Shown piece after piece: positions 2,960 to 22,056 of a stretch of DNA of 64,000 nucleotides. The notes below the pieces were generated by a model. The model saw only the letters and a program-made list of their open reading frames with translations. It was not told where the DNA came from and did not search any database. The stretch is taken from assembly GCF_056746865.1 (NCBI RefSeq), contig NZ_CM163382.1; one strand, written 5' to 3'. Positions within the stretch are counted from its first letter, which is position 1; each line of letters begins with the position of its first letter. Position numbers and translations under genes: made by a program.

Positions 2960-3592
2960 TTATATTAATTCATATAATTTGGCGTAGTCGATAAGCTCTA
3001 CAATTGAATGCAATCCTAGCTTGCCATAAATATTAGATTTATGCGCACTAACTGTTTTATTGCTAAGTAATAACTTATCGGCAATTTCTTTATTAGATAA
3101 TCCGCTGACCAGATAACGTAATATCGTCACTTCACGATTAGATAGCACAGTGATCGTTGAACTATTCGTGCTACATTTATTGCTTTTTATATAGTTGAGC
3201 GTTTCGCTGGGAAAAAAAGTGTATCCGGAGAGGATCATCTGAACGGCATGAAAAATATCATTCTGATCATTGCATTTACTGACAAAACCGTTAGCACCAG
3301 CTTGTATCGCTCTGCCAGCATAAAAGCATTCTGATTTCGATGATAAAAATAATACTTTCACTGTGCTCTGGATTTGTTTGATCCTTTTCAGGAAGGTAAA
3401 ACCGTCTGTTCCGGGCAAGTCTATATCCATAATGATTAAATCAACAGGACGGGTTCGGAGATAATCGATGGTTATGCGATAATCATCCGTTTTCAGGACA
3501 ATTTGCAATTCACTGTTTTTTTGCAACAGAACTTCAATAGACATTCTGATGATAGGATGAGTATCCATAATGATCACCGACGTTGGTTTCAT
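2960..3592 (-). CDS. fimZ: LuxR-family two-component response regulator
   Basis: Start taken at MKPTSVIIMD (receiver domain with DLIIMDIDLPGTDG) and C-terminal LuxR HTH; ORF track gives a longer upstream extension. Confidence 0.85.
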   Translation of the reverse strand: MKPTSVIIMDTHPIIRMSIEVLLQKNSELQIVLKTDDYRITIDYLRTRPVDLIIMDIDLPGTDGFTFLKRIKQIQSTVKVLFLSSKSECFYAGRAIQAGANGFVSKCNDQNDIFHAVQMILSGYTFFPSETLNYIKSNKCSTNSSTITVLSNREVTILRYLVSGLSNKEIADKLLLSNKTVSAHKSNIYGKLGLHSIVELIDYAKLYELI

Positions 3593-12300: not shown

Positions 12301-13229
12301 TGGCAAACACTGCTGAGATATTCAATTTTCCAGTGCCGGATGCGGCACAAAAGGAGCCGCGCGTGGCAGATCTCGATGATGGTTATACGCGCATTGCAAA
12401 TGAGTTGCTGGAAGCTGTGATGCTGGCCGGATTAACACAGCACCAGCTTCTGGTCTTCCTGGCTGTCATGCGCAAAACATATGGCTTTAATAAAAAACTG
12501 GATTGGGTGAGCAACGAGCAACTTTCCGAATTGACCGGGATATTGCCGCACAAGTGTTCTGCTGCAAAAAGCGTTCTGGTAAAGCGTGGGATTCTTATTC
12601 AGAGCGGGCGGAATATCGGCATTAATAATGTGGTCAGTGAATGGTCAACATTACCCGAATCAGGTAAGAAAAATAAAGTTTACCTGAAAGAGGTAAATTT
12701 ACCTGAATCAGGTAAGAAAAGTTTACCCAAATCAGGTAAAGGCGTTTACCCGAATCAGGTAAACACAAAAGACAAACTAACAAAAGACAATATAAAACCT
12801 TTTTCGTCCGAGAATTCTGGCGAATCCTCTGACCAGCCAGAAAACGATCTTCCTGTGGTGAAACCGGATGCTGCAATTCAGAGCGGCAGCAAGTGGGGGA
12901 CAGCAGAAGACCTGACCGCCGCAGAGTGGATGTTTGACATGGTGAAGACTATCGCACCATCAGCCAGAAAACCGAATTTTGCTGGGTGGGCTAACGATAT
13001 CCGCCTGATGCGTGAACGTGACGGACGTAACCACCGCGACATGTGCGTGCTGTTCCGCTGGGCCTGCCAGGACAACTTCTGGTCCGGTAACGTGCTGAGT
13101 CCGGCCAAACTCCGCGACAAGTGGACCCAGCTCGAAATCAACCGGAACAAGCAACAGGCTGGCGTGACAGTCGGCAAACCAAAACTCGACCTGACAAACA
13201 CTGACTGGATTTACGGGGTGGATCTATGA
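12301..13229 (+). CDS. O: replication initiator O (divergent N-terminal DNA-binding domain, lambda-like C-terminal domain)
   Basis: Start at MANTAEIFNF preceded by GGGAGG; C-terminal half recognised as lambda O; contains iterons. Confidence 0.85.
12651..12763. repeat. ori iterons (5 copies of an 18-bp TTACC-N8-GGTAA repeat) inside O
   Basis: ttacccgaatcaggtaag, ttacctgaaagaggtaaa, ttacctgaatcaggtaag, ttacccaaatcaggtaaa, ttacccgaatcaggtaaa, followed by an A-rich stretch. Confidence 0.8.
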
Positions 13230-13927
13230 AAAACATCGCCGCACAGATGGTTAACTTTGACCGTGAGCAGATGCGTCGGATCGCCAACAACATGCCGGAA
13301 CAGTATGACGAAAAGCCACAGGTACAGCAGGTAGCGCAGATCATCAACGGTGTGTTCAGCCAGTTACTGGCAACTTTCCCGGCGAGCCTGGCTAATCGTG
13401 AGCAGAACGAACTGAACGAAATCCGCCGCCAGTGGGTTCTGGCTTTCCGGGAAAACGGGATCACCACGATGGAACAGGTTAACGCAGGAATGCGCGTAGC
13501 CCGTCGGCAGAATCGACCATTCCTGCCATCCCCCGGACAGTTTGTAGCCTGGTGCCGGGAAGAAGCATCCGTTATTGCCGGACTACCAAACACCAGCGAG
13601 CTGGTTGATATGGTTTACGAGTATTGCCGGAAGCGTGGCCTGTATCCGGATGCAGAGTCTTATCCGTGGAAATCAAACGCGCACTACTGGCTGGTTACCA
13701 ACCTGTATCAGAACATGCGGGCCAATGCGCTTACTGATGCGGAATTACGGCGCAAGGCTGCCGATGAACTGACTTGTATGACCGCGCGAATTAACCGTGG
13801 TGAGGCGATACCTGAACCAGTAAAACAACTTCCTGTCATGGGCGGTAGACCTCTAAATCGTGCACAGGCTCTGGCGAAGATCGCAGAAATCAAAGCGAAG
13901 TTCGGACTGAAAGGAGCAACTGTATGA
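13226..13927 (+). CDS. P: replication protein P (DnaB helicase loader)
   Basis: 233-aa product recognised as near-identical to lambda P. Confidence 0.95.
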   Translation: MKNIAAQMVNFDREQMRRIANNMPEQYDEKPQVQQVAQIINGVFSQLLATFPASLANREQNELNEIRRQWVLAFRENGITTMEQVNAGMRVARRQNRPFLPSPGQFVAWCREEASVIAGLPNTSELVDMVYEYCRKRGLYPDAESYPWKSNAHYWLVTNLYQNMRANALTDAELRRKAADELTCMTARINRGEAIPEPVKQLPVMGGRPLNRAQALAKIAEIKAKFGLKGATV

Positions 13928-14226
13928 CGGGCAAAGAGGCAATTATTCATTACCTGGGGACGCATAAGAGCTTCTGTGCGCAGGACGTTGCTGCGGTAAC
14001 AGGCGCAACAGTAACCAGTATAAATCAGGCTGCGGCTAAAATGGCACGGGCAGGAATCTTGGTCGTTGATGGTAAGGTCTGGCGAACGGTGTATTACCGG
14101 TTCGCTACCAGGGAAGAACGGGAAGGAAAGGTGAGCACGAATCTGATTTTCAAGGAGTGTCGCCAGAGTGCCGCGATGAAACGAGTGTTGGCAGTGTATG
14201 GAGATATGAACTTAAACTTGCTGTGA
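13924..14226 (+). CDS. ren: Ren exclusion protein
   Basis: MTGKEAIIHYLGTH... matches lambda Ren. Confidence 0.85.
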   Translation: MTGKEAIIHYLGTHKSFCAQDVAAVTGATVTSINQAAAKMARAGILVVDGKVWRTVYYRFATREEREGKVSTNLIFKECRQSAAMKRVLAVYGDMNLNLL

Positions 14227-14474
14227 CGGTTTTCATCGGTAACACACCATGTAATCTAGCAGTCAGCTTAGAAATAGGAGCGGCAGTTAAAGATTTTTCA
14301 GTTAGTAGAAAATTACTGTTATTGCAGGGATCTAATCACCGGAGAGTCGTTCCATTTGTCTTATGATTACCTGAAGTCCGTTAGTTCGTTGGTAATCACC
14401 GTTTTTGTTAGAGAAGTAAGCATCGCTGACAAAATATTCTCAACGATGCCTGCTTTATTGCTACTACAAATTAA

Positions 14475-15977
14475 TTAAATTGCATCTGCAAACTCTGGGG
14501 TTTTTCGCTCAGGTATAATTGATGAGTTGCTGTTGTCACTTTTTTTATTTTCATGATTACGAATAGCCAATGACTCATTAAAGTCTTTTGCGACTGCTGT
14601 CTCAATAAATTCAATTTCTGAATCAGAGTGTTTTTTAACAGCTTCTTTGATCTCATCCAGAGTAACATAGAAAAACTCTTTTCTACGATTTACAAGATTG
14701 ACTCTCTTTTTATCGAAGACATCATGTAGTTTTTTTTCTAATGATGGAGCGTCCTCCGAATAAATCATGGCATGTACATCAAAAATAAAAGGAACAGATG
14801 CATCACCGAGCTCATTTACACGGTCTTGCGGATCAAGACGTCGTGTCATGCCTATTTTATAAACATTCTCCCCAAAAGAACCTATGTTCGAAATAATATA
14901 AACATGACCTTGTTTGGTTTGTTGTGCCATGGATAATGCTCTTTGATGCTTTGATTCAGCCTGCGACAAACTCTGTTCTAGTTCGGCAATGCGATTTTCG
15001 AGGCGCTGCTTCATGTCACCAGTAACTTTTTCCATTTCCTTTCTTGCAGCTTCAATTGCTTTTTTATAACGGCGCTCTTCTGCCTCTGCGTCTTGCATGG
15101 CCTTTTCTATTTCTCGTTGTGCACGCTCCTCCTCTCTCATTTGTGCCCTTATTTCTGCCTGTTCTTCTTTTTCTTTCTGTTTTTGCTCACGATATTCATG
15201 GGTAAGCCACAATTCCTCAAGTTTTTTATTGAGGTATTTAGTGTTTATATATATGTGATTTTGCTCGTTTAGTTTATTTATGGCCTCAAATGCCTTTGTG
15301 ATGCGTTCTTCCATTTTAGTGATGTTTTTCCACGTGCAATTGCTAATTGCAGCATCACATTCATTATTAAATGCTCTAGTAGTTAGCCTGATATTTCTGT
15401 CTGTCATTTTTTTACCCTCTGCTCGAGAGCCTTCAACAGTCCATTGGGTTGTACAATATACTGCGCCAGAGTGGGTTTTATCCCGCAGCATTAATTTCTG
15501 TTCATCCCTGATGGATTTTATTTTGTTTTTAAATTGCTCTGAATCTTCAAAATTAAAATGAGGTTCGTAAAATCCTAGTTCGGCTAGCTCAACATCTTCT
15601 GAATAAATAGAAATTTGCCTTACTAGTTTATCATATATTTCTTTCTTCTCTTTATAAGTTCTTCTTAGCTCTTGGATTTGTTTATTGATACCATCCATTT
15701 TTTCAATGGTGTTTGTTAGTTCATTATTGGCATTTTCTTTTACTTTTAGGGATTCTTCTTTTATTATGGAGCATTCTTGCTCTGTTTTCTCAATAAGCTT
15801 CTTACATTCTTCTTCTACATTAAAATAATCTGCAAAGCGAGATTTGTATTCTTCATTTTTTTGATTGCTATCACTTAATTCTAATTGTATTTTTTTGATG
15901 CGTTTGATTGCAGCTATATAAAGAACAAGAACAACCAATAAAAATATGATTGCAAGTAATAGAGGAGTTTGAGTCAT
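14475..15977 (-). CDS. membrane-anchored coiled-coil protein with C-terminal T5orf172/GIY-YIG-like domain (candidate defence/exclusion gene)
   Basis: N-terminal hydrophobic helix, long K/E-rich coiled coil, C-terminal GHVYIISN...YKIGMTRRLDPQDRVNEL...VPF motif; very AT-rich; opposite strand to surrounding early genes. Confidence 0.75.
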   Translation of the reverse strand: MTQTPLLLAIIFLLVVLVLYIAAIKRIKKIQLELSDSNQKNEEYKSRFADYFNVEEECKKLIEKTEQECSIIKEESLKVKENANNELTNTIEKMDGINKQIQELRRTYKEKKEIYDKLVRQISIYSEDVELAELGFYEPHFNFEDSEQFKNKIKSIRDEQKLMLRDKTHSGAVYCTTQWTVEGSRAEGKKMTDRNIRLTTRAFNNECDAAISNCTWKNITKMEERITKAFEAINKLNEQNHIYINTKYLNKKLEELWLTHEYREQKQKEKEEQAEIRAQMREEERAQREIEKAMQDAEAEERRYKKAIEAARKEMEKVTGDMKQRLENRIAELEQSLSQAESKHQRALSMAQQTKQGHVYIISNIGSFGENVYKIGMTRRLDPQDRVNELGDASVPFIFDVHAMIYSEDAPSLEKKLHDVFDKKRVNLVNRRKEFFYVTLDEIKEAVKKHSDSEIEFIETAVAKDFNESLAIRNHENKKSDNSNSSIIPERKTPEFADAI

Positions 15978-16286
15978 TCGTGCTATTCCTTACGGACAAT
16001 TTAAGACGTTTTGTATTAAATCCTGTTCAATGTGTATGCGGGTGATTGCTACCGCTTACAATCTTCATAATTATCAGTTAGATAGACTCGCTAGTAAATA
16101 ATTTCATTTTTTGCAATATTCTTATTGAATATTTCAATTTATGAAATGAACTCTTTATCCTTTCAAGGTGAAAGGTTTCTTCTTCGGAAATATTTGCTCT
16201 CGTGTGACGTATAAAGACCTTTGATTTTCAAAAATCAGTAGGGAATAATATAGTTACTGTCGGCCTGAACACCCGGTGGTGGGGTT

Positions 16287-16370
16287 GCGCTAAACGGGGA
16301 CGTTTATGCGCACACACAATCCAAACTCTCATCTCCATTCACAGATGCAGAAATGCACCTACGATTTTTT
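16287..16370 (+). repeat. 84-bp direct repeat, copy 1
   Basis: gcgctaaacggggacgtttatgcgcaca...cgatttttt, about 93 percent identical to 18221-18304; begins with a hairpin and ends with a T-run. Confidence 0.85.
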
Positions 16371-16789
16371 ACATTCGGTGTTTTACTTCGACAGCCAGAA
16401 TTGGGAGTCTCTATTCGTCTGGCGGCTAAAGGTGATATGGAAATCGTTATGTTTTGGCCTGAGGTAGTTGTAACTGTTGTAGCAGCTATGGATGTGATCA
16501 TCATGGTGTCCATTTACTGGGGTTGACGACATGATTTATCCGGCGCTATATTCTGTGCGTTGCCGCAAAATCGGCACACGGGATTGGCGTCCCGGGATAC
16601 TACTCAACGCATACCGCGTTAAGCGGTTTTTTTGTGCGCTAAGCACGGCTATGCCCAAATTATGGTGGGCTGTGTGAGGGCTTCTTCGGAAGCGCCGGGT
16701 TTGAGTAGCCGGTTACGCCAACCTTACACAGTTCACCACCAGTCGATTGGCGTCGTTGGTGGTGATGGTTAACCTGATGAGGTGATACT

Positions 16790-17398
16790 ATGACTACTCA
16801 ATTAGCATTCCACAAAACGACGTTTACCCCGATTTGCCACAATAACAGAATTTGGCTTACTGCCACTGAAGTTGGTTTAGCACTGGAATATGCGGACGAT
16901 AAAGCAGTTCAGCGCATTTACTCTCGGCACTCAGATGAATTCACAGATATGATGACAAGGGTGGTCAAAGTGACCACCCCTCGTGGAATGCAGGAGTCTC
17001 GAGTATTTAGCCTTCGCGGAGCCCATTTGATCGCCATGTTTGCTCGTACTCCTGTGGCCAAAGAATTCCGCCGCTGGGTTCTGGATATTCTCGATCGAGA
17101 AGTTCAACAATCCCCAATCACAAAACAATTCACTGATAACGAACTTTGCACACTCGCCTGGTTATGGCGAGCAAGTGATACGATGTTAACCGCCTGCCAG
17201 AACGTTACGCCCCTTCTTCAGGTCGCAGAGCATCGCGAAGCAGGTAGATTCACTTCAATCGAACAAGAATATCCTCGGATACTCAACAGGGCGCGAGAAA
17301 TCCTTGCCAGAGAAACGGCGCATGTAAAATTCCAACCGTGGCAGGATGATAAGTGGAGTCGTGTGTTACCATATTTCCGTCAGAATCTGTTGCAATAA
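16790..17398 (+). CDS. Bro-N/antirepressor-like protein
   Basis: N-terminal pattern ...RIWLTATEVGLALEY...RWVLDIL resembles Bro-N/Ant-type phage domains. Confidence 0.55.
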   Translation: MTTQLAFHKTTFTPICHNNRIWLTATEVGLALEYADDKAVQRIYSRHSDEFTDMMTRVVKVTTPRGMQESRVFSLRGAHLIAMFARTPVAKEFRRWVLDILDREVQQSPITKQFTDNELCTLAWLWRASDTMLTACQNVTPLLQVAEHREAGRFTSIEQEYPRILNRAREILARETAHVKFQPWQDDKWSRVLPYFRQNLLQ

Positions 17399-17633
17399 AG
17401 TCACTAGTTAGAAATACTGCCAGCATTCTGCGATGACGGAAGTGCTGGCATTTTTTTTGGTAATGTGCGAGTCCATTTCATAAAATACGGGTACTGGAAC
17501 TGGACGATATAATCTAAAAGATACCATTATCAGTAGCATTAAAATCGCTATGTGCCGATACGGATATAAATTATATTGATTGTTCACATACCTTATTGGA
17601 TATTACTGAGGGGTGTTTATATAAGGTGTAACG

Positions 17634-18143
17634 ATGATGTGGAACTTTGACAGTGCCGACTTAAGTGCAATAGCAGCAGGCATTTCTGCGTTTGGCACAT
17701 TAGCCGCAGCGGGGTCGGCGCTTGCAAGTTGGTGCACGTCAAAAAAAGCGCTGCAGCTACAAAATAGAGTTTACCTTTATGAGTCTTTAAAGGCTTGCGC
17801 TGAGAGAGCCAATTCATCAGCTAAAGATAAGCGCGGATCTGAATGGAGCGTTAATGATGCAGCGGATATCATCAGGTGCCTAGTACGGGCGATGGAGCTC
17901 ATCAAGCAGGATAGCCAGCAGAAAGAAGGTAATCAGGCATTAATGTTGAAACAGTACTTTGTTAATCTGCTAATAATGGAACTGTACGAGGAAGTTCATA
18001 ACGGTGATGCGGCTGATTCTGTTTTTAAAAGTACGGAACCTACACAAGTACTTGATAACTTATGGAGCAAATGGCAGGAGGCTATAGCTTTTTTTGATAT
18101 TTGGAATTACCCAGTTGCGACTGAGGAAGACTTGGCAGACTAA
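17634..18143 (+). CDS. hypothetical protein with N-terminal hydrophobic segment
   Basis: 169-aa ORF within the repeat-flanked module. Confidence 0.5.
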   Translation: MMWNFDSADLSAIAAGISAFGTLAAAGSALASWCTSKKALQLQNRVYLYESLKACAERANSSAKDKRGSEWSVNDAADIIRCLVRAMELIKQDSQQKEGNQALMLKQYFVNLLIMELYEEVHNGDAADSVFKSTEPTQVLDNLWSKWQEAIAFFDIWNYPVATEEDLAD

Positions 18144-18220
18144 TTTTCAGCACATTTGATTTCCAATAATCAACCAGCCATAATCATGCCATTGGAGCTT
18201 GAACAACTCCGGTGACTTCT

Positions 18221-18304
18221 GCGCTAAACGGGGACGTTTATGCGCACATACAATCCAAACTCTCTTCTCCCTTCACAGATGCAGAGATGCACCTGCGATT
18301 TTTT
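18221..18304 (+). repeat. 84-bp direct repeat, copy 2
   Basis: Second copy of the repeat at 16287-16370, immediately upstream of ybcN. Confidence 0.85.
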
Positions 18305-18337
18305 GCATCCAGCGTTTGACCTCTGCGGAGGTGAAGC

Positions 18338-18793
18338 GTGAACCTCCCACAAGACGGCATCAAATTGCATCGTGGTAACTTCACCGCTATCGGCCAGCAG
18401 ATCCAGCCTTATCTGGAGGAAGGCAAATGCTTTCGCATGGTGCTTAAACCGTGGCGTGAGAAACGCAGTCTTTCCCAGAATGCACTCAGCCACATGTGGT
18501 ACAGCGAAATCAGTGAATACCTCATCAGCAGGGGTAAAACGTTCGCCACTCCAGCTTGGGTAAAAGATGCTCTCAAACACACATATCTCGGTTATGAAAC
18601 CAAAGACCTGGTTGATGTCGTAACCGGTGAGATCACCACTATCCAGTCGTTACGCCATACCTCCGATCTTGATACCGGAGAGATGTATATCTTCCTGTGT
18701 AAGGTTGAAGCCTGGGCGGTGAATATTGGCTGCCACCTGACTATTCCGCAGAGCTGCGAGTTCCAGCTGCTGCGCGACAAGCAGGAGGCGTAA
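18338..18793 (+). CDS. ybcN: YbcN-family nin-region protein
   Basis: GTG start after GGAGG; 151-aa product recognised as DLP12 YbcN. Confidence 0.85.
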
Positions 18794-18963
18794 TGGCTAC
18801 ACCGCTTATTCGTGTCATGAACGGACACATCTACAGAGTACCAAATCGTCGTAAGCGTAAACCTGAGCTGAAGCCATCCGAAATACCAACACTGCTCGGA
18901 TATACCGCCAGCTTGGTTGATAAAAAATGGTTGCGACTGGCAGCAAGGAGGAATCATGGCTGA
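18793..18963 (+). CDS. ninE: NinE-family protein
   Basis: 56-aa [19 protein letters not shown]..., below the ORF-track cutoff; start overlaps ybcN stop. Confidence 0.7.
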   Translation: MATPLIRVMNGHIYRVPNRRKRKPELKPSEIPTLLGYTASLVDKKWLRLAARRNHG

Positions 18964-19246
18964 TTTGAGAAAAGCAGCGCGTGGTCGGGAATGCCAGGTA
19001 AGAATCCCTGGCGTATGTAATGGCAATTCTGAGACGTCTGTACTGGCACATATCCGGCTGGCTGGATTGTGCGGTACCGGTATCAAACCGCCAGACCTGA
19101 TTGCCACCATTGCATGTTCTGCCTGCCACGACGAAATCGACCGCCGCACGCATTTTGTTGACGCTGGATATGCAAAAGAATGCGCGCTGGAAGGTATGGC
19201 GAGAACGCAGGTTATCTGGCTGAAAGAGAGGGTAATTAAGGCGTGA
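18956..19246 (+). CDS. ybcO: YbcO-family nin-region protein
   Basis: Start at [14 protein letters not shown]; Cys-rich product recognised as DLP12 YbcO. Confidence 0.8.
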
Positions 19247-19605
19247 ATACTTACCACATCACACTACCCTGGCCTCCGAGCAATAATCGCTATTACCGCC
19301 ATAATCGCGGGCGCACGCACGTCAGCGCAGAGGGGCAGGCATACCGCGATAACGTCGCCCGAATCATTAAAAACGCAATGCTGGATATCGGCCTGGCTAT
19401 GCCTGTGAAAATCCGCATTGAGTGCCACATGCCGGATCGCCGTCGCCGTGACCTGGATAATCTGCAAAAAGCCGCTTTTGACGCACTCACTAAAGCAGGT
19501 TTCTGGCTGGATGATGCTCAGGTCGTTGATTACCGCGTTGTGAAGATGCCTGTTACCAAAGGTGGGAGGCTGGAACTGACCATCACCGAAATGGGGAATG
19601 AATGA
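19243..19605 (+). CDS. rusA: Holliday-junction resolvase RusA
   Basis: 120-aa product recognised as RusA. Confidence 0.95.
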
Positions 19606-19742
19606 TGTTTGAGTTTAATATGGCAGAACTTCTTCGCCACCGCTGGGGGCGTCTGCGCTTATATCGTTTCCCCGGCTCTGTTTTGACCGATTACCGAATA
19701 CTGAAGAATTACGCCAAAACACTGACAGGAGCAGGAGTATGA
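19602..19742 (+). CDS. ylcG: YlcG-family small protein
   Basis: 46-aa [21 protein letters not shown]... overlapping rusA stop. Confidence 0.6.
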
Positions 19743-19827
19743 AGTCAGAGATAACAATCAACTAATACTGTTTTGTTGATTTTTGCTTGTAATTGGCGTT
19801 CTGGTCTGAGTTTTGTGGAGTAAGTTG

Positions 19828-20211
19828 ATGCGTGATATTCAGATGGTTCTTGAGCGTTGGGGAGCGTGGGCGGCTAATAATCATGAAGATGTGACCTGGT
19901 CGTCCATTGCCGCCGGTTTTAAGGGATTAATTCCTTCAAAAGTAAAATCTCGCCCGCAATGTTGTGACGATGACGCGATGATCATTTGCGGGTGCATGGC
20001 CCGTCTGAAAAAGAACAACAGCGATTTGCACGATTTATTAGTAGATTATTATGTAGTCGGTATGACATTCATGTCACTGGCAGGTAAGCATTGCTGCTCT
20101 GATGGTTATATCGGGAAAAGGTTACAAAAGGCTGAGGGCATAATTGAAGGGATGTTAATGGCATTAGATATCCGGTTAGAGATGGATATCGTTGTTAATA
20201 ACTCTAATTAA
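19828..20211 (+). CDS. quuD: late-gene antiterminator Q
   Basis: Start at [18 protein letters not shown]; recognised as DLP12-type Q; followed by hairpin-rich qut/terminator region. Confidence 0.85.
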
Positions 20212-20227
20212 TATGCCAATTGTTTAC

Positions 20228-20263
20228 TAAAAATTATTAAAAATGGGGCGTTGAGACGCCCCC
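20228..20263 (-). terminator. candidate rho-independent terminator (minus strand)
   Basis: Stem GGGGCGT-loop-ACGCCCC with a T-rich tract on the minus strand. Confidence 0.35.
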
Positions 20264-20350
20264 AAAAATAAAGGGTAATATATAACAGAAGGTTTATATA
20301 GTTAGAAGCAAGGTTGTGCTTCTAAAGGAAGTGGCTTGAGGGAGCCACTT

Positions 20351-20390
20351 ATATGTTGGGGAGGCAACGCCTCCCGCAACATATCTTTTT
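20351..20390 (+). terminator. tR'-like terminator downstream of Q/pR' (possibly bidirectional with the porin gene)
   Basis: Near-perfect palindrome ATATGTTGGGGAGGCAACGCCTCCCGCAACATAT followed by CTTTTT. Confidence 0.55.
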
Positions 20391-20400
20391 CGTAATCAGA

Positions 20401-21483
20401 TTAGAACTGGTAAACCAGACCTACAGCAACGATGTCATCAGTATCAATACCAGCTGTTTTGGTAAACTTACTATCGTCAATTAAGTTGATTTTGTAATCA
20501 ACAAAAGTGGACATGTTTTTATTAAAGTAGTAAGTAGCACCGACATCGACATACTTGACTAAGTCTCGGTCACCATGAACACCAAGGTCTTTACCTTTTG
20601 ACTGAAGGTAAGCAACAGATGGGCGCAGACCGAAGTCAAACTGATATTGTGCTACTGCTTCAAAGTTTTGTGCTTTGTTTGCAATATGGTTATTACCAAA
20701 AACGGTCATATTCTGAGTTTCAGAATATGTGGTAGCCAGATAGATATTGTTCGCATCATATTTCAGGCCTGCAGCCCATACTTCCGCATTTTTGCCGGAG
20801 GCATTGAATTTGCTCTTACCATAGGCGACCTGACCGTCAGTGCGATCTGATTTAGCATAGGTTGCACCCACGCCGAATCCTTCATACTCATAAGTAGTGG
20901 AGAAACCGAAACCATCACCATTGGCTTCAGTTACGTCAGTGCGGTCATTTTTACCCTGATACTGAGCAGCAAAGTTCAGGCCATCGACCAGACCAAAGAA
21001 GTCGTTGTTACGATAAGTTGCAACACCAGTAGTGCGACCAGTCATGAACACATCTGTTTGGGTCCAGGTATCACCACCGAATTCTGGCAGGACGTCAGTC
21101 CACGCACCGATGTCGTATGCTACACCGTAGTTACGGCCGTAATCGATTGAGCCGTAATCACCAAATTTCAGGCCTGCAAATGCAAGACGGGTTTTGTCTT
21201 TGGAAGAACCTTGAGATTCAGCGCGGTTGCCTTTGAATTCATATTCCCACTGACCGAAACCAGTCAGTTGATCGTTGATTTGGGTTTCACCTTTGAAGCC
21301 AAGACGGGCATAAGTAGTATCACCATCATCTGCATCATTAGAGGAGAAGTAGTGCTTAGCATTAACTTTCCCGTACAGATCCAGCTTGTTACTGTCTTTA
21401 TTATAAATTTCAGCTGCCTGAGCAGACATCGCCATCAGTACTGATGCAGCTACAGCAGAAATTGCCACTGTTAATTTTTTCAT
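20401..21483 (-). CDS. nmpC: general outer-membrane porin (NmpC/OmpD-like), prophage cargo
   Basis: 360-aa product with signal peptide and C-terminal ...VGLVYQF porin ending; located between Q and lysis genes on opposite strand. Confidence 0.85.
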
Positions 21484-22056
21484 CGTGAGCCCTTTTTTTT
21501 GAACTATTATTAAAAAATGATGTCACTGCGCGATAAATATTCATCTAATCAATGTGATTATTTCAAGATGTAAGTTTTGGTTTCTCGTTTAATTTGTGAA
21601 GTAGATCTCTATTTTTATCTGAACTTTTTTCTATCGAATCCTATTCATGGCTCTTGGCTGAATAAAAATAAATCTATTAGCCAATTTATATTAATGGCTG
21701 TTATTTATAAGTGCTCTATAATTTGAAGGTTCAATTTAAATTGGCTAAAAATAACGCTGGAAATTATTTGTTGGTTATTTGTTGAGATTTGCTTATGTAT
21801 TTGTAGTGGTGTTTTCAATACTCGGTAGCATTCTCGCAAATATCATTTAGTGGTTTACGTACGTAAAAAATTGGTTATGCTGTTAAGAGTGGTTACTTCG
21901 TCACACAGCTTAAACCCGCCGTCGAGCGGGTTTTTCCATTTTTTGAGTCTCGATATTAGCTGATAACCCAATACCTGAGTTATTCACTGACTCCGAGTCT
22001 GTTACGTTTCGTAGTATTCCCTCAATTTACACCCGCTTTGTCTGCGAGGTGGGGTT

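Follow-up and report, generated by a model that had tools for sequence, protein, structure and literature searches.

In phage lambda, the gap between ren and ninB contains tR2, an intrinsic terminator made of one strong hairpin (-15.7 kcal/mol), which lies immediately before the NinB-family gene that opens the nin region and is accompanied by neither a promoter, nor an upstream open reading frame (ORF), nor a hairpin over a Shine-Dalgarno (SD) sequence. Before the corresponding gene of phage 82 (X92588), putative -35 and -10 hexamers, a ribosome-binding site, a small gene (orf33), and an inverted repeat labelled "possible regulator-binding site" are annotated, and in the DLP12 prophage of Escherichia coli K-12 the same element is carried as a 33-codon coding sequence (CDS), ylcH, which overlaps ybcN by 4 nt. 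Both records contain one copy, treated as a promoter plus a small gene. Here we analyzed a 64,000-nt stretch of DNA (contig NZ_CM163382.1 of assembly GCF_056746865.1, hereafter the window), in which two copies of this element stand as direct repeats around a cassette that carries an antirepressor gene, ant.

The closest described relatives of the cassette are the immI locus of P1 and P7 (c4 RNA-icd-ant) and the isrK-orf45-anrP locus of Gifsy-1, whose antirepressor induces the prophage (PMC4825925). The logic of translational coupling has been demonstrated for orf45-anrP (PMC4825925). Both in orf45-anrP and in the PhrS/pqsR pair cited in that paper, a short ORF ends at or near the next start codon while the SD sequence lies in a stable hairpin, as in the leader described below; the leader differs in that the start of its own upstream ORF is also locked in a hairpin, and in that its coupling is read from sequence.

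Judging from the comparison of many related loci, the repeats are two copies of a conserved promoter and structured-RNA leader that is normally found once, before ybcN/ninB. Where the phage 82 and K-12 annotation shows a promoter and a gene, the comparative data give four covarying RNA hairpins and a peptide that is not under selection. The best explanation, to which we give a probability of about 0.72, is a duplicated leader unit of ~190 nt, a ybcN gene gated by translational coupling, and a C4-controlled Ant cassette imported by recombination. Homology, covariation, Rfam and Pfam memberships, and mosaic patterns were observed; from them we infer promoter activity, coupling, termination, the recombination history, and the function of Ant.

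The repeat search returned a single two-copy family, 16286-16389 and 18220-18323, 104 nt long, 89% identical, and 1,934 nt apart. Such a match greatly exceeds what chance would give, and thousands of genomes contain the same element. Within it, an 84-nt core (16287-16370 and 18221-18304) showed 5 mismatches in a pairwise alignment (~94% identity), in agreement with the two 84-bp repeats of about 93% identity in a preliminary description of this locus. The hairpin GCGCTAAACG-GGGA-CGTTTATGCGC and the T-run (ACGATTTTTT in one copy, GCGATTTTTT in the other) given there also occur in both copies. That description captured the core and its central hairpin and T-run correctly; it understated the extent of the repeat and overlooked a conserved promoter, an upstream hairpin (A), and a downstream hairpin that sequesters the SD sequence (D). 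BLAST against phage 82 and inspection showed that weaker homology between the copies reaches upstream to 16220 and 18155, ~65 nt beyond the core; this extension is ~80% identical to phage 82 and holds the promoter-like site and the additional hairpin. Searches that included a covariance model (CM) revealed no third copy within the window. The elements of the two copies are as follows.

16221-16249, plus strand: sigma-70-type promoter-like site of the left copy, TTGATT-17 nt-AATAAT (promoter scan)
16254-16282, plus strand: left hairpin A, 10 pairs including several G-U, loop CCUGAACAC (anchor-based pairing table; CM helix 1)
16286-16389, plus strand: direct repeat copy 1 (104-nt core); its homology with copy 2 stops in the 5' arm of copy-2 hairpin D
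16287-16311, plus strand: left hairpin B, GGGA loop, small-ORF ATG (16306) in the 3' arm (fold -13.8 kcal/mol)
16339-16370, plus strand: left hairpin C, GAAA loop and T-run, weakened by a CUG-to-CUA change at the stem base (fold -4.4 kcal/mol)
18156-18184, plus strand: promoter-like site of the right copy, TTGATT-17 nt-CATAAT (promoter scan; same hexamers annotated in X92588)
18188-18216, plus strand: right hairpin A, loop CUUGAACAA (pairing table, folding, CM alignment)
18220-18323, plus strand: direct repeat copy 2 (104-nt core), ending 15 nt before the ybcN start
18221-18245, plus strand: right hairpin B, GGGGA (possible SD) in the loop, ATG (18240) in the 3' arm (folding, CM alignment)
18240-18341, plus strand: 33-codon ORF, equivalent to ylcH and phage 82 orf33; its TGA stop overlaps the ybcN GTG start
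18273-18304, plus strand: right hairpin C, GAGA loop, two conserved A.C mismatches, T-run, terminator-like (fold -9.3 kcal/mol)
18312-18339, plus strand: hairpin D, anti-SD/SD, covering GGAGG (18327-18331) and the first bases of the ybcN GTG (fold -16.8 kcal/mol)
18338-18793, plus strand: ybcN, NinB/Orf family (phrog_72, E 1.3e-52; annotations)

Compensatory substitutions indicate that the leader is a conserved, structured cis-regulatory RNA. For comparison, 90 distinct leader versions were collected. Hairpin A occurred with 41 different pairs of arms, all of which form 8-12 pairs around the conserved loop CYUGARCAM, and 9 of its 10 pairs (CM helix 1) showed compensatory changes; several versions, including both copies in the window, contain G-U pairs, which are valid only in the RNA of the plus strand. 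In hairpin B, seven unrelated stems (e.g., TAAACG/CGTTTA, TTTAAG/CTTAAA, CAAGTG/CACATG, and TTGAAG/CTTCAA) surround an invariant GGGA loop in the pairing table, with compensatory changes in all 10 pairs (CM helix 2). The loop and the preceding G read GGGGA and lie 5-6 nt ahead of the ATG or GTG in the 3' arm. In the left copy of phage IdasGreatGrand (L005 in our numbering of loci, ~3001-3030), the loop is GTGA instead of GGGA, still of GNRA type, and the ATG of the small ORF has become ATA, so that the shape of the RNA is retained though the start of the ORF is lost. Hairpin C kept its pairing in 14 arm variants, with a GNRA-type loop followed by a T-run, through compensations such as UGCA/UGCA to UGGC/GCCA and CAG/CUG to CCG/CGG. 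Hairpin D pairs the SD sequence in all 89 leaders of three sequence types (mean -16.3 kcal/mol, against -8.7 kcal/mol for shuffles), and its outer helix covaries. It is present in the right copy only; the homology of the left leader ends just before the ybcN SD sequence.

From a plain MAFFT alignment, RNAalifold independently recovered hairpin C and, for hairpin D, the outer portion; it missed hairpin B, which MAFFT had misregistered. A covariance model was therefore built from one sequence type and the leaders were realigned to it. This model matched the window at 18185-18309 (90.2 bits) and 16251-16375 (75.3 bits), and 97 other instances. In the alignment of 78 distinct sequences, 96.0% of the pair cells were paired, as against 74.3% in column shuffles and 24-33% with slid partners; 23 of the 29 leader pairs showed compensatory double changes, and the covariation score was 0.512 versus 0.143 for shuffles, none of 500 shuffles scoring as high. 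The suggestion that the repeat is an RNA element rather than coding sequence thus gains from the covarying hairpins and from the lack of purifying selection on the overlapping ORF, and the proposed folding test gave the energies listed above for left hairpin B, both hairpins C, and hairpin D. Two other readings of the hairpins were considered and rejected. A competing hairpin between the T-run and GAUGCAGAAA, which is the RNAfold minimum-energy structure for copy 2 and for phi80, is broken in the Klebsiella type, where hairpin C is compensated, and hairpin A does not fit the boxB sites of lambda and P22 in stem and loop geometry.

The same element was found in other lambdoid phages, as the preliminary description had proposed to check. 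A search with copy 2 gave a single match just upstream of a NinB-family gene in phages 82, phi80, HK639, HK225, and CobraSix and in Enterobacter phages; Klebsiella phages matched over the 3' half only, also with a single copy before a NinB-family gene. Copy 2 is 90.7% identical to positions 49-294 of X92588, whose inverted repeat corresponds to hairpin A, and a hairpin annotated "IR4" lies at the leader position in phi80. The leader stands upstream of ybcN/ninB in 2,891 of 5,426 complete E. coli genomes, including DLP12 of K-12, while the complete two-copy arrangement is present in only 111 of them; among 80 viral contigs fetched via YbcN, most carry one leader copy and 11 carry two. When viral contigs were scanned with a degenerate pattern, 120 loci came up, of which 49 were chance matches without leader similarity. 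In every genome, the leader sits directly against hairpin D and the ybcN start. These observations bear out the view that the repeat is a 5' regulatory region of ybcN, duplicated alongside the inserted module. There is no sequence similarity to lambda at this position, and no lambda record was matched in the searches. Rfam 15 gave no match at E <= 1 over 16220-16390 or 18155-18340, no leader match reached a gathering score in 8 related loci, and literature searches for ylcH, a ybcN small RNA, a ninB small RNA, and literal leader sequences returned nothing on function, nor was the sequence found printed. The leader is thus apparently a widespread, strongly covarying cis-regulatory RNA that has not been described as such.

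As to how the leader would work, we propose the following. The unit of ~190 nt, comprising the promoter, hairpin A, hairpin B, a C/U-rich linker, hairpin C with its T-run, and hairpin D, would open the block from ybcN/ninB to Q. Hairpin B would expose the GGGGA SD sequence in its loop and hide the start codon of the 31-33-codon upstream ORF, and hairpin D would hide the SD sequence and start of ybcN, so that direct initiation at ybcN is blocked. A ribosome that has started on the upstream ORF would read through hairpins C and D and end on the ybcN start, which would then be translated by coupling; hairpin B would limit the upstream ORF and hairpin D would limit ybcN, a double lock. Coupling gated by hairpin B is the best-supported mechanism, because hairpin D appears to lock the ybcN site and the ORF ends on the ybcN start. 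Because hairpins A and C are located where lambda has tR2, either or both may also stop part of transcription; hairpin A and hairpin C with its T-run are the candidate terminators in tR2's place, within a leader of four hairpins unlike the single hairpin of lambda. The cassette, with its own truncated left leader lacking hairpin D, lies ahead of the resident leader, and after the left leader follow a 29-codon ORF, isrK, C4, ant, and a DUF4760-like gene. Homologous recombination, with one crossover lying within the leader, probably brought it in, and it could be lost by the same route.

The promoter predicted at the head of the leader is conserved and presumably active. Among 73 distinct upstream regions, the -35 hexamer was TTGATT in 50, with TTGCTT, TTGCAA, and TTGATA among others, and it stood exactly 17 nt from CATAAT, GATAAT, AATAAT, TATAAT, or CATACT, while the spacer and the upstream DNA varied. 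An inverted repeat, TTGAT-N8-ATCAA, spans the -35 hexamer and the spacer in most E. coli and Enterobacter leaders and may be an operator; in the window it was seen in the 16156-16184 region and at 18156-18173. A few of its variants read TGATAATCATT, which we take to resemble a Fur box. RNA of ylcH has been detected in K-12 (PMC8910356); a Cappable-seq supplement lists no start site for the K-12 leader promoter at the expected coordinates.

Published Term-seq data for K-12 place a low-count RNA 3' terminus, reproduced under two conditions and classed as "orphan", at 572349/572350 (PMC7815308, supplement). This end falls 19 nt before the ylcH ATG and 5-6 nt past hairpin A (~2554 of locus L215), and because it lies just after the hairpin, hairpin A presumably ends or protects some RNA in vivo; the stem is followed in K-12 by UUCU only. 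No 3' end was found at hairpin C in the K-12 Term-seq data, in a strain whose T-run is degenerate at that place. The terminator scan flagged hairpin C of copy 2, not that of copy 1.

Several points weigh against our interpretation. The only experimental RNA end found, that of K-12, suits a terminator of upstream transcription better than a 5' stabilizer of the leader transcript. Hairpin C is weak in both copies (-9.3 and -4.4 kcal/mol) compared with lambda tR2, and its T-run is degenerate in K-12 and in loci L019 and L037. In a lysogen, constitutive transcription from a promoter ahead of Q would be dangerous if termination were not efficient. A second reading frame of the leader is equally open, so that the integrity of the upstream ORF alone is weak evidence of translation. 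The CM alignment was fitted to the very structure under test; the anchor-based tables and RNAalifold on the MAFFT alignment agree for hairpins A, C, and D. Finally, one cassette family occupies all two-copy loci, so general exchange between copies, as envisaged when the repeats were described as possible mediators of cassette exchange, is unsupported.

A more ambitious reading, which we hold to be doubtful, makes the leader an undescribed, widespread regulatory unit (promoter, possible operator, terminator-like hairpins, ORF gate) that steers entry into ybcN...rusA...Q independently of pR and N, and that together with a second copy and isrK/C4-Ant would form a self-contained switch linking an environmental or RNA signal to Q expression and induction. 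In Gifsy-1, the AnrP-induced antQ operon starts 1.6 kb upstream of antQ, and in the window the leader promoter lies at about the same distance from Q.

It is unlikely, in our view, that the leader is an independent small RNA (sRNA) gene, whose ~110-nt product (built from hairpins A and B, a C/U-rich seed, and a terminator formed by hairpin C) would act in trans in lysogens, the duplication then giving two sRNA alleles. The promoter is conserved, hairpin C of copy 2 with its T-run was flagged as terminator-like, purine-rich ribosome-binding sites find their complement in the single-stranded C/U-rich linker, and RNA of ylcH was reported in K-12 without ybcN (PMC8910356). However, no Rfam family matched and the sequence was not found in the literature, the K-12 Term-seq end lies after hairpin A and none lies at hairpin C (though the T-run of K-12 is degenerate), hairpin C falls well short of tR2 in stability (-9.3 against -15.7 kcal/mol), and the close physical association, in every genome, with hairpin D and the start of ybcN points to a role in cis.

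That the repeat is coding sequence, the right copy being a gene for a conserved small protein (ylcH/orf33) and the left copy a truncated pseudogene left by insertion of the cassette, we judge quite improbable. The 33-codon CDS is annotated in phage 82, K-12, HK225, and Klebsiella phages, and the NCBI pipeline (PGAP) marks the left copy as a truncated pseudogene, an incomplete hypothetical protein of this CDS. All 89 leaders keep the start (ATG or GTG) and the frame of the upstream ORF, of 31-33 codons, and in 88 of these its stop overlaps the start of ninB. On the other hand, its variable sites are spread 39:47:41 over codon positions 1, 2, and 3, and its substitutions comprise 34 synonymous and 111 non-synonymous changes, a synonymous fraction (34/145 = 0.23) equal to the neutral expectation of 0.21-0.24. 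The peptide replacements between E. coli and Klebsiella (QMQKCTC versus PMAKATG) are exactly the compensations in the stem of hairpin C, all 5 differences between the copies in the window are non-synonymous in this frame, another frame is as open, and conservation is seen far ahead of the ORF too, in the promoter and hairpin A. Because of the neutral synonymous fraction, the even spread over codon positions, and the hairpin C compensations, the ylcH/orf33 peptide does not appear to be under selection; if the upstream ORF matters, then, as far as its substitutions tell, it is through being translated and not through its peptide. A conserved protein-coding gene had been named as what would speak against an RNA element: an annotated 33-codon CDS does overlap the repeat, yet purifying selection on its peptide was not found. 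Two ORFs of the minus strand that end in the repeat (69 and 48 aa) have 4 of the 5 copy differences on their third codon positions; both were rejected: the 48-aa ORF runs antisense through the ybcN start, and RNA covariation is what the wider alignment shows instead.

Turning from the leader to the cassette, the two ORFs of the preliminary description (16790-17398, 202 aa, and 17634-18143, 169 aa) are present as stated, and its Bro-N/antirepressor-like gene was upheld by Bro-N and P22_AR_C domains; the isrK-type and C4-type antisense RNAs, which define the module, had been overlooked. The features between the copies are as follows.

16437-16526, plus strand: 29-codon hydrophobic ORF (MEIVMFWPEVVVTVVAAMDVIIMVSIYWG), with AAAGGTGAT upstream and a good ribosome-binding site (phrog_4612, E 5.9e-17)
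16523-16552, plus strand: isrK/C4 promoter-like site, TTGACG-18 nt-TATATT, 10/12 matches (strong in the promoter scan)
16561-16633, plus strand: isrK-type sRNA (RF01394, 58.7 bits against a gathering score of 50)
16658-16743, plus strand: C4-type antisense RNA (RF01695, clan CL00128; 74.8 bits, gathering threshold 45; full-length match, 1-87)
16790-17398, plus strand: antirepressor gene ant, 202 aa (Bro-N E 7.6e-10, P22_AR_C E 6.2e-17; PHROG Ant families)
17634-18143, plus strand: gene whose 169-aa product has a hydrophobic helix at its N terminus and a helical domain (phrog_1779; 14 homologues)

The 29-codon ORF lies between the left leader and the isrK promoter and is conserved in L005 and L082, with synonymous and non-synonymous changes mixed; its product could be a small membrane peptide or toxin. 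The site at 16523-16552 is placed relative to isrK like PisrK of Gifsy-1 (PMC4825925). An intrinsic terminator of isrK was found at 16613-16633 by the terminator scan, and a match to the c4-a1b1 target model (RF03163) at 16546-16598 overlaps isrK and, at 39.6 bits, falls short of the gathering score of 46.7. Complementarity links the C4 loops UGAGUAG and CGCCAA to CUACUCA at 16794-16800 and UUGGCG at 16748-16753, at the start of ant, and also to sites upstream inside isrK, UUGGCG at 16585-16590 and CUACUCA at 16600-16606 (the latter seen by eye). An ORF of 36-46 codons (16632/16661-16772) overlaps C4 and ends 17 nt before ant, which is annotated elsewhere as a Rha or P22AR C-terminal domain protein. 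By analogy with P1 immI and Gifsy-1 isrK-anrP, C4 RNA would pair with the two short sites at the start of ant and keep the antirepressor untranslated; both this control and the function of Ant are deduced from those systems.

The cassette is like P1/P7 immI and Gifsy-1 isrK-orf45-anrP in its C4 and isrK matches, its duplicated target sites, its small ORF, which overlaps C4 as orf45/STnc1160 does in Gifsy-1, and the Bro-N-type antirepressor downstream of the RNAs. It differs in that the c4-a1b1 target model remains below its gathering score, in its place before the ybcN-to-Q block (the Gifsy-1 isrK locus lies after antQ), and in being preceded by a copy of the ninB leader and the 29-codon ORF. 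After ant, a long perfect hairpin with T8 was seen at ~17406-17464 and is probably the terminator of the cassette; the sole Rfam match there is a chance match to a miRNA family (E 0.5). The isrK/C4 core (16519-16773) also occurs at ~69-72% identity in more than 200 phage records, mostly Shiga toxin (Stx) 1 and 2 phages, where it adjoins ninE without a preceding leader copy.

For the 169-aa protein, no Pfam match even at E <= 10, no PADLOC match, and no significant PDB match were obtained. Its AlphaFold2 model (pLDDT 70.7) gave Foldseek matches to proteins annotated as DUF4760 (E 1e-9 and 4e-7, TM 0.78-0.81), and the product resembles a DUF4760-like membrane protein on the strength of this model. 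A HEPN toxin was also considered and rejected, the Foldseek matches being weak (probability 0.2-0.35) and the Rx4-6H motif not visible in the alignment. The slot of this gene is variable: L005, L071, and L082 have other genes there, as do strains 06_3235 and 08_3418. In the two strains (L216, 3923-4719, and L217, 4443-5239, respectively), a HEPN-domain gene overlapping a 133-aa hypothetical gene stands in this slot and looks like a toxin-antitoxin or defence pair. Because this pair replaces the 169-aa gene in other strains, the slot after ant would be a second variable cargo position.

The distribution of the two-copy arrangement bears on its origin. The covariance model was run on seven two-copy sources (the window, L005, L014, L054, L071, L082, and L216), and all of them hold the isrK/C4-ant cassette; Rfam confirmed C4 and isrK in the window and in all four two-copy relatives scanned (L005, L071, L082, and L216) and found neither in two single-copy, ant-free loci scanned (L037 and L215). 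That every two-copy locus examined holds one cassette family suggests one ancestral duplication that was later spread by recombination. The left copies of the diverged lineages (the window, L005, and L082) are ~90-91% identical and all run into the same post-leader sequence; because they have diverged about as much as the accompanying cassette, the left leader probably belongs to the cassette lineage as an old and stable component, as opposed to having been duplicated locally in recent times.

Comparison with isolates lacking the module, another check that had been proposed, was informative. Loci L019, L027, L037, and L041 share with the window the flank that carries PD-Lambda-1 (97-98.7%) and ybcN, with one leader and no cassette, and the allele of their promoter and hairpin A is that of the window's left copy. 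L014, L054, L071, and L076 have the cassette in common with the window, at up to 99.5% identity that sets in at exactly 16286, and carry a different promoter and hairpin A allele upstream of this position. The simplest history that these sequences suggest is a homologous recombination in which a prophage of the L037 type received the cassette of an L014-type donor, the left crossover falling between hairpins A and B. The -35 hexamer is where homology ends in 58 of 79 ybcN loci, and in 8 others it ends within the leader; at least 19 unrelated sequences were found upstream of the leader. On this alignment pattern, the leader forms a fixed boundary to a hypervariable accessory slot, which holds PD-Lambda-1, EmrE, an alpha/beta hydrolase, a HEPN pair, or DNA polymerase III theta. 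Modular evolution with mosaic junctions and "morons" is well established for lambdoid phages, and the arrangement described here is an ordinary product of this mosaicism. Like other such junctions, the leader separates a conserved block of genes from a hypervariable slot, and breakpoints cluster at it; unlike them, it looks like a functional regulatory RNA and occurs in two copies in a single genome. An apparent second case, in which the alpha/beta-hydrolase gene of Lambda_4C10-type phages seemed to be bracketed by two leaders, was rejected when direct BLAST showed one leader and a 77%-identical remnant of ant.

It is very improbable that the repeats are att-like or attC-like recombination sites or a target duplication, and the 1.9-kb segment mobile by site-specific recombination or transposition, for although an accessory segment does lie between direct repeats and "empty site" relatives exist, no recombinase or transposase was found in or beside the segment (13000-22000 examined), the repeat of 104-170 nt with graded identity is too long and diffuse for a target duplication or an att core, the sequence resides as a single regulatory element in thousands of genomes, the breakpoints vary (the -35 hexamer, the junction of hairpins A and B, within hairpin B or the linker), and the left copies have diverged like the cassette (~91%).

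The window around the repeats is a lambdoid prophage, 99.9% identical to phage PhiR26_1, which served as the source of comparison annotation. According to this annotation and the ORF list, O, P, and ren follow one another on the plus strand, a 500-aa gene of the minus strand sits between ren and the repeat segment, and ybcN is the first gene of the conserved block ybcN-ninE-ybcO-rusA-ylcG-Q. The 500-aa gene (14475-15977) is the anti-phage defence gene PD-Lambda-1 (PADLOC, E 1.9e-198), is so annotated in PhiR26_1, and fills the hypervariable slot between ren and the left leader. Directly after Q, a porin gene of OmpC/NmpC type lies on the minus strand (20401-21483), as in DLP12, and is annotated as OmpD in PhiR26_1. 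In phage PhiR5_1 (L004, 6764-6969), Rfam matched the STnc100 sRNA downstream of Q (143 bits).

About half of the complete E. coli genomes, K-12 among them, have the leader before the ybcN-rusA-Q block, and so far it is known only as an annotated 33-codon hypothetical gene, without an RNA family. The duplicated leader shows how a regulatory sequence can double as homology for the entry of a cassette into a prophage. Because it marks the exact border of a cargo slot (PD-Lambda-1, HEPN pairs, EmrE, hydrolases), it is a landmark for mining defence and accessory genes. PhiR26_1 grows on MG1655 and offers a direct experimental system. If the leader gates the genes toward Q, it would be part of the late-expression decision in many lambdoid prophages, including relatives of Stx phages.

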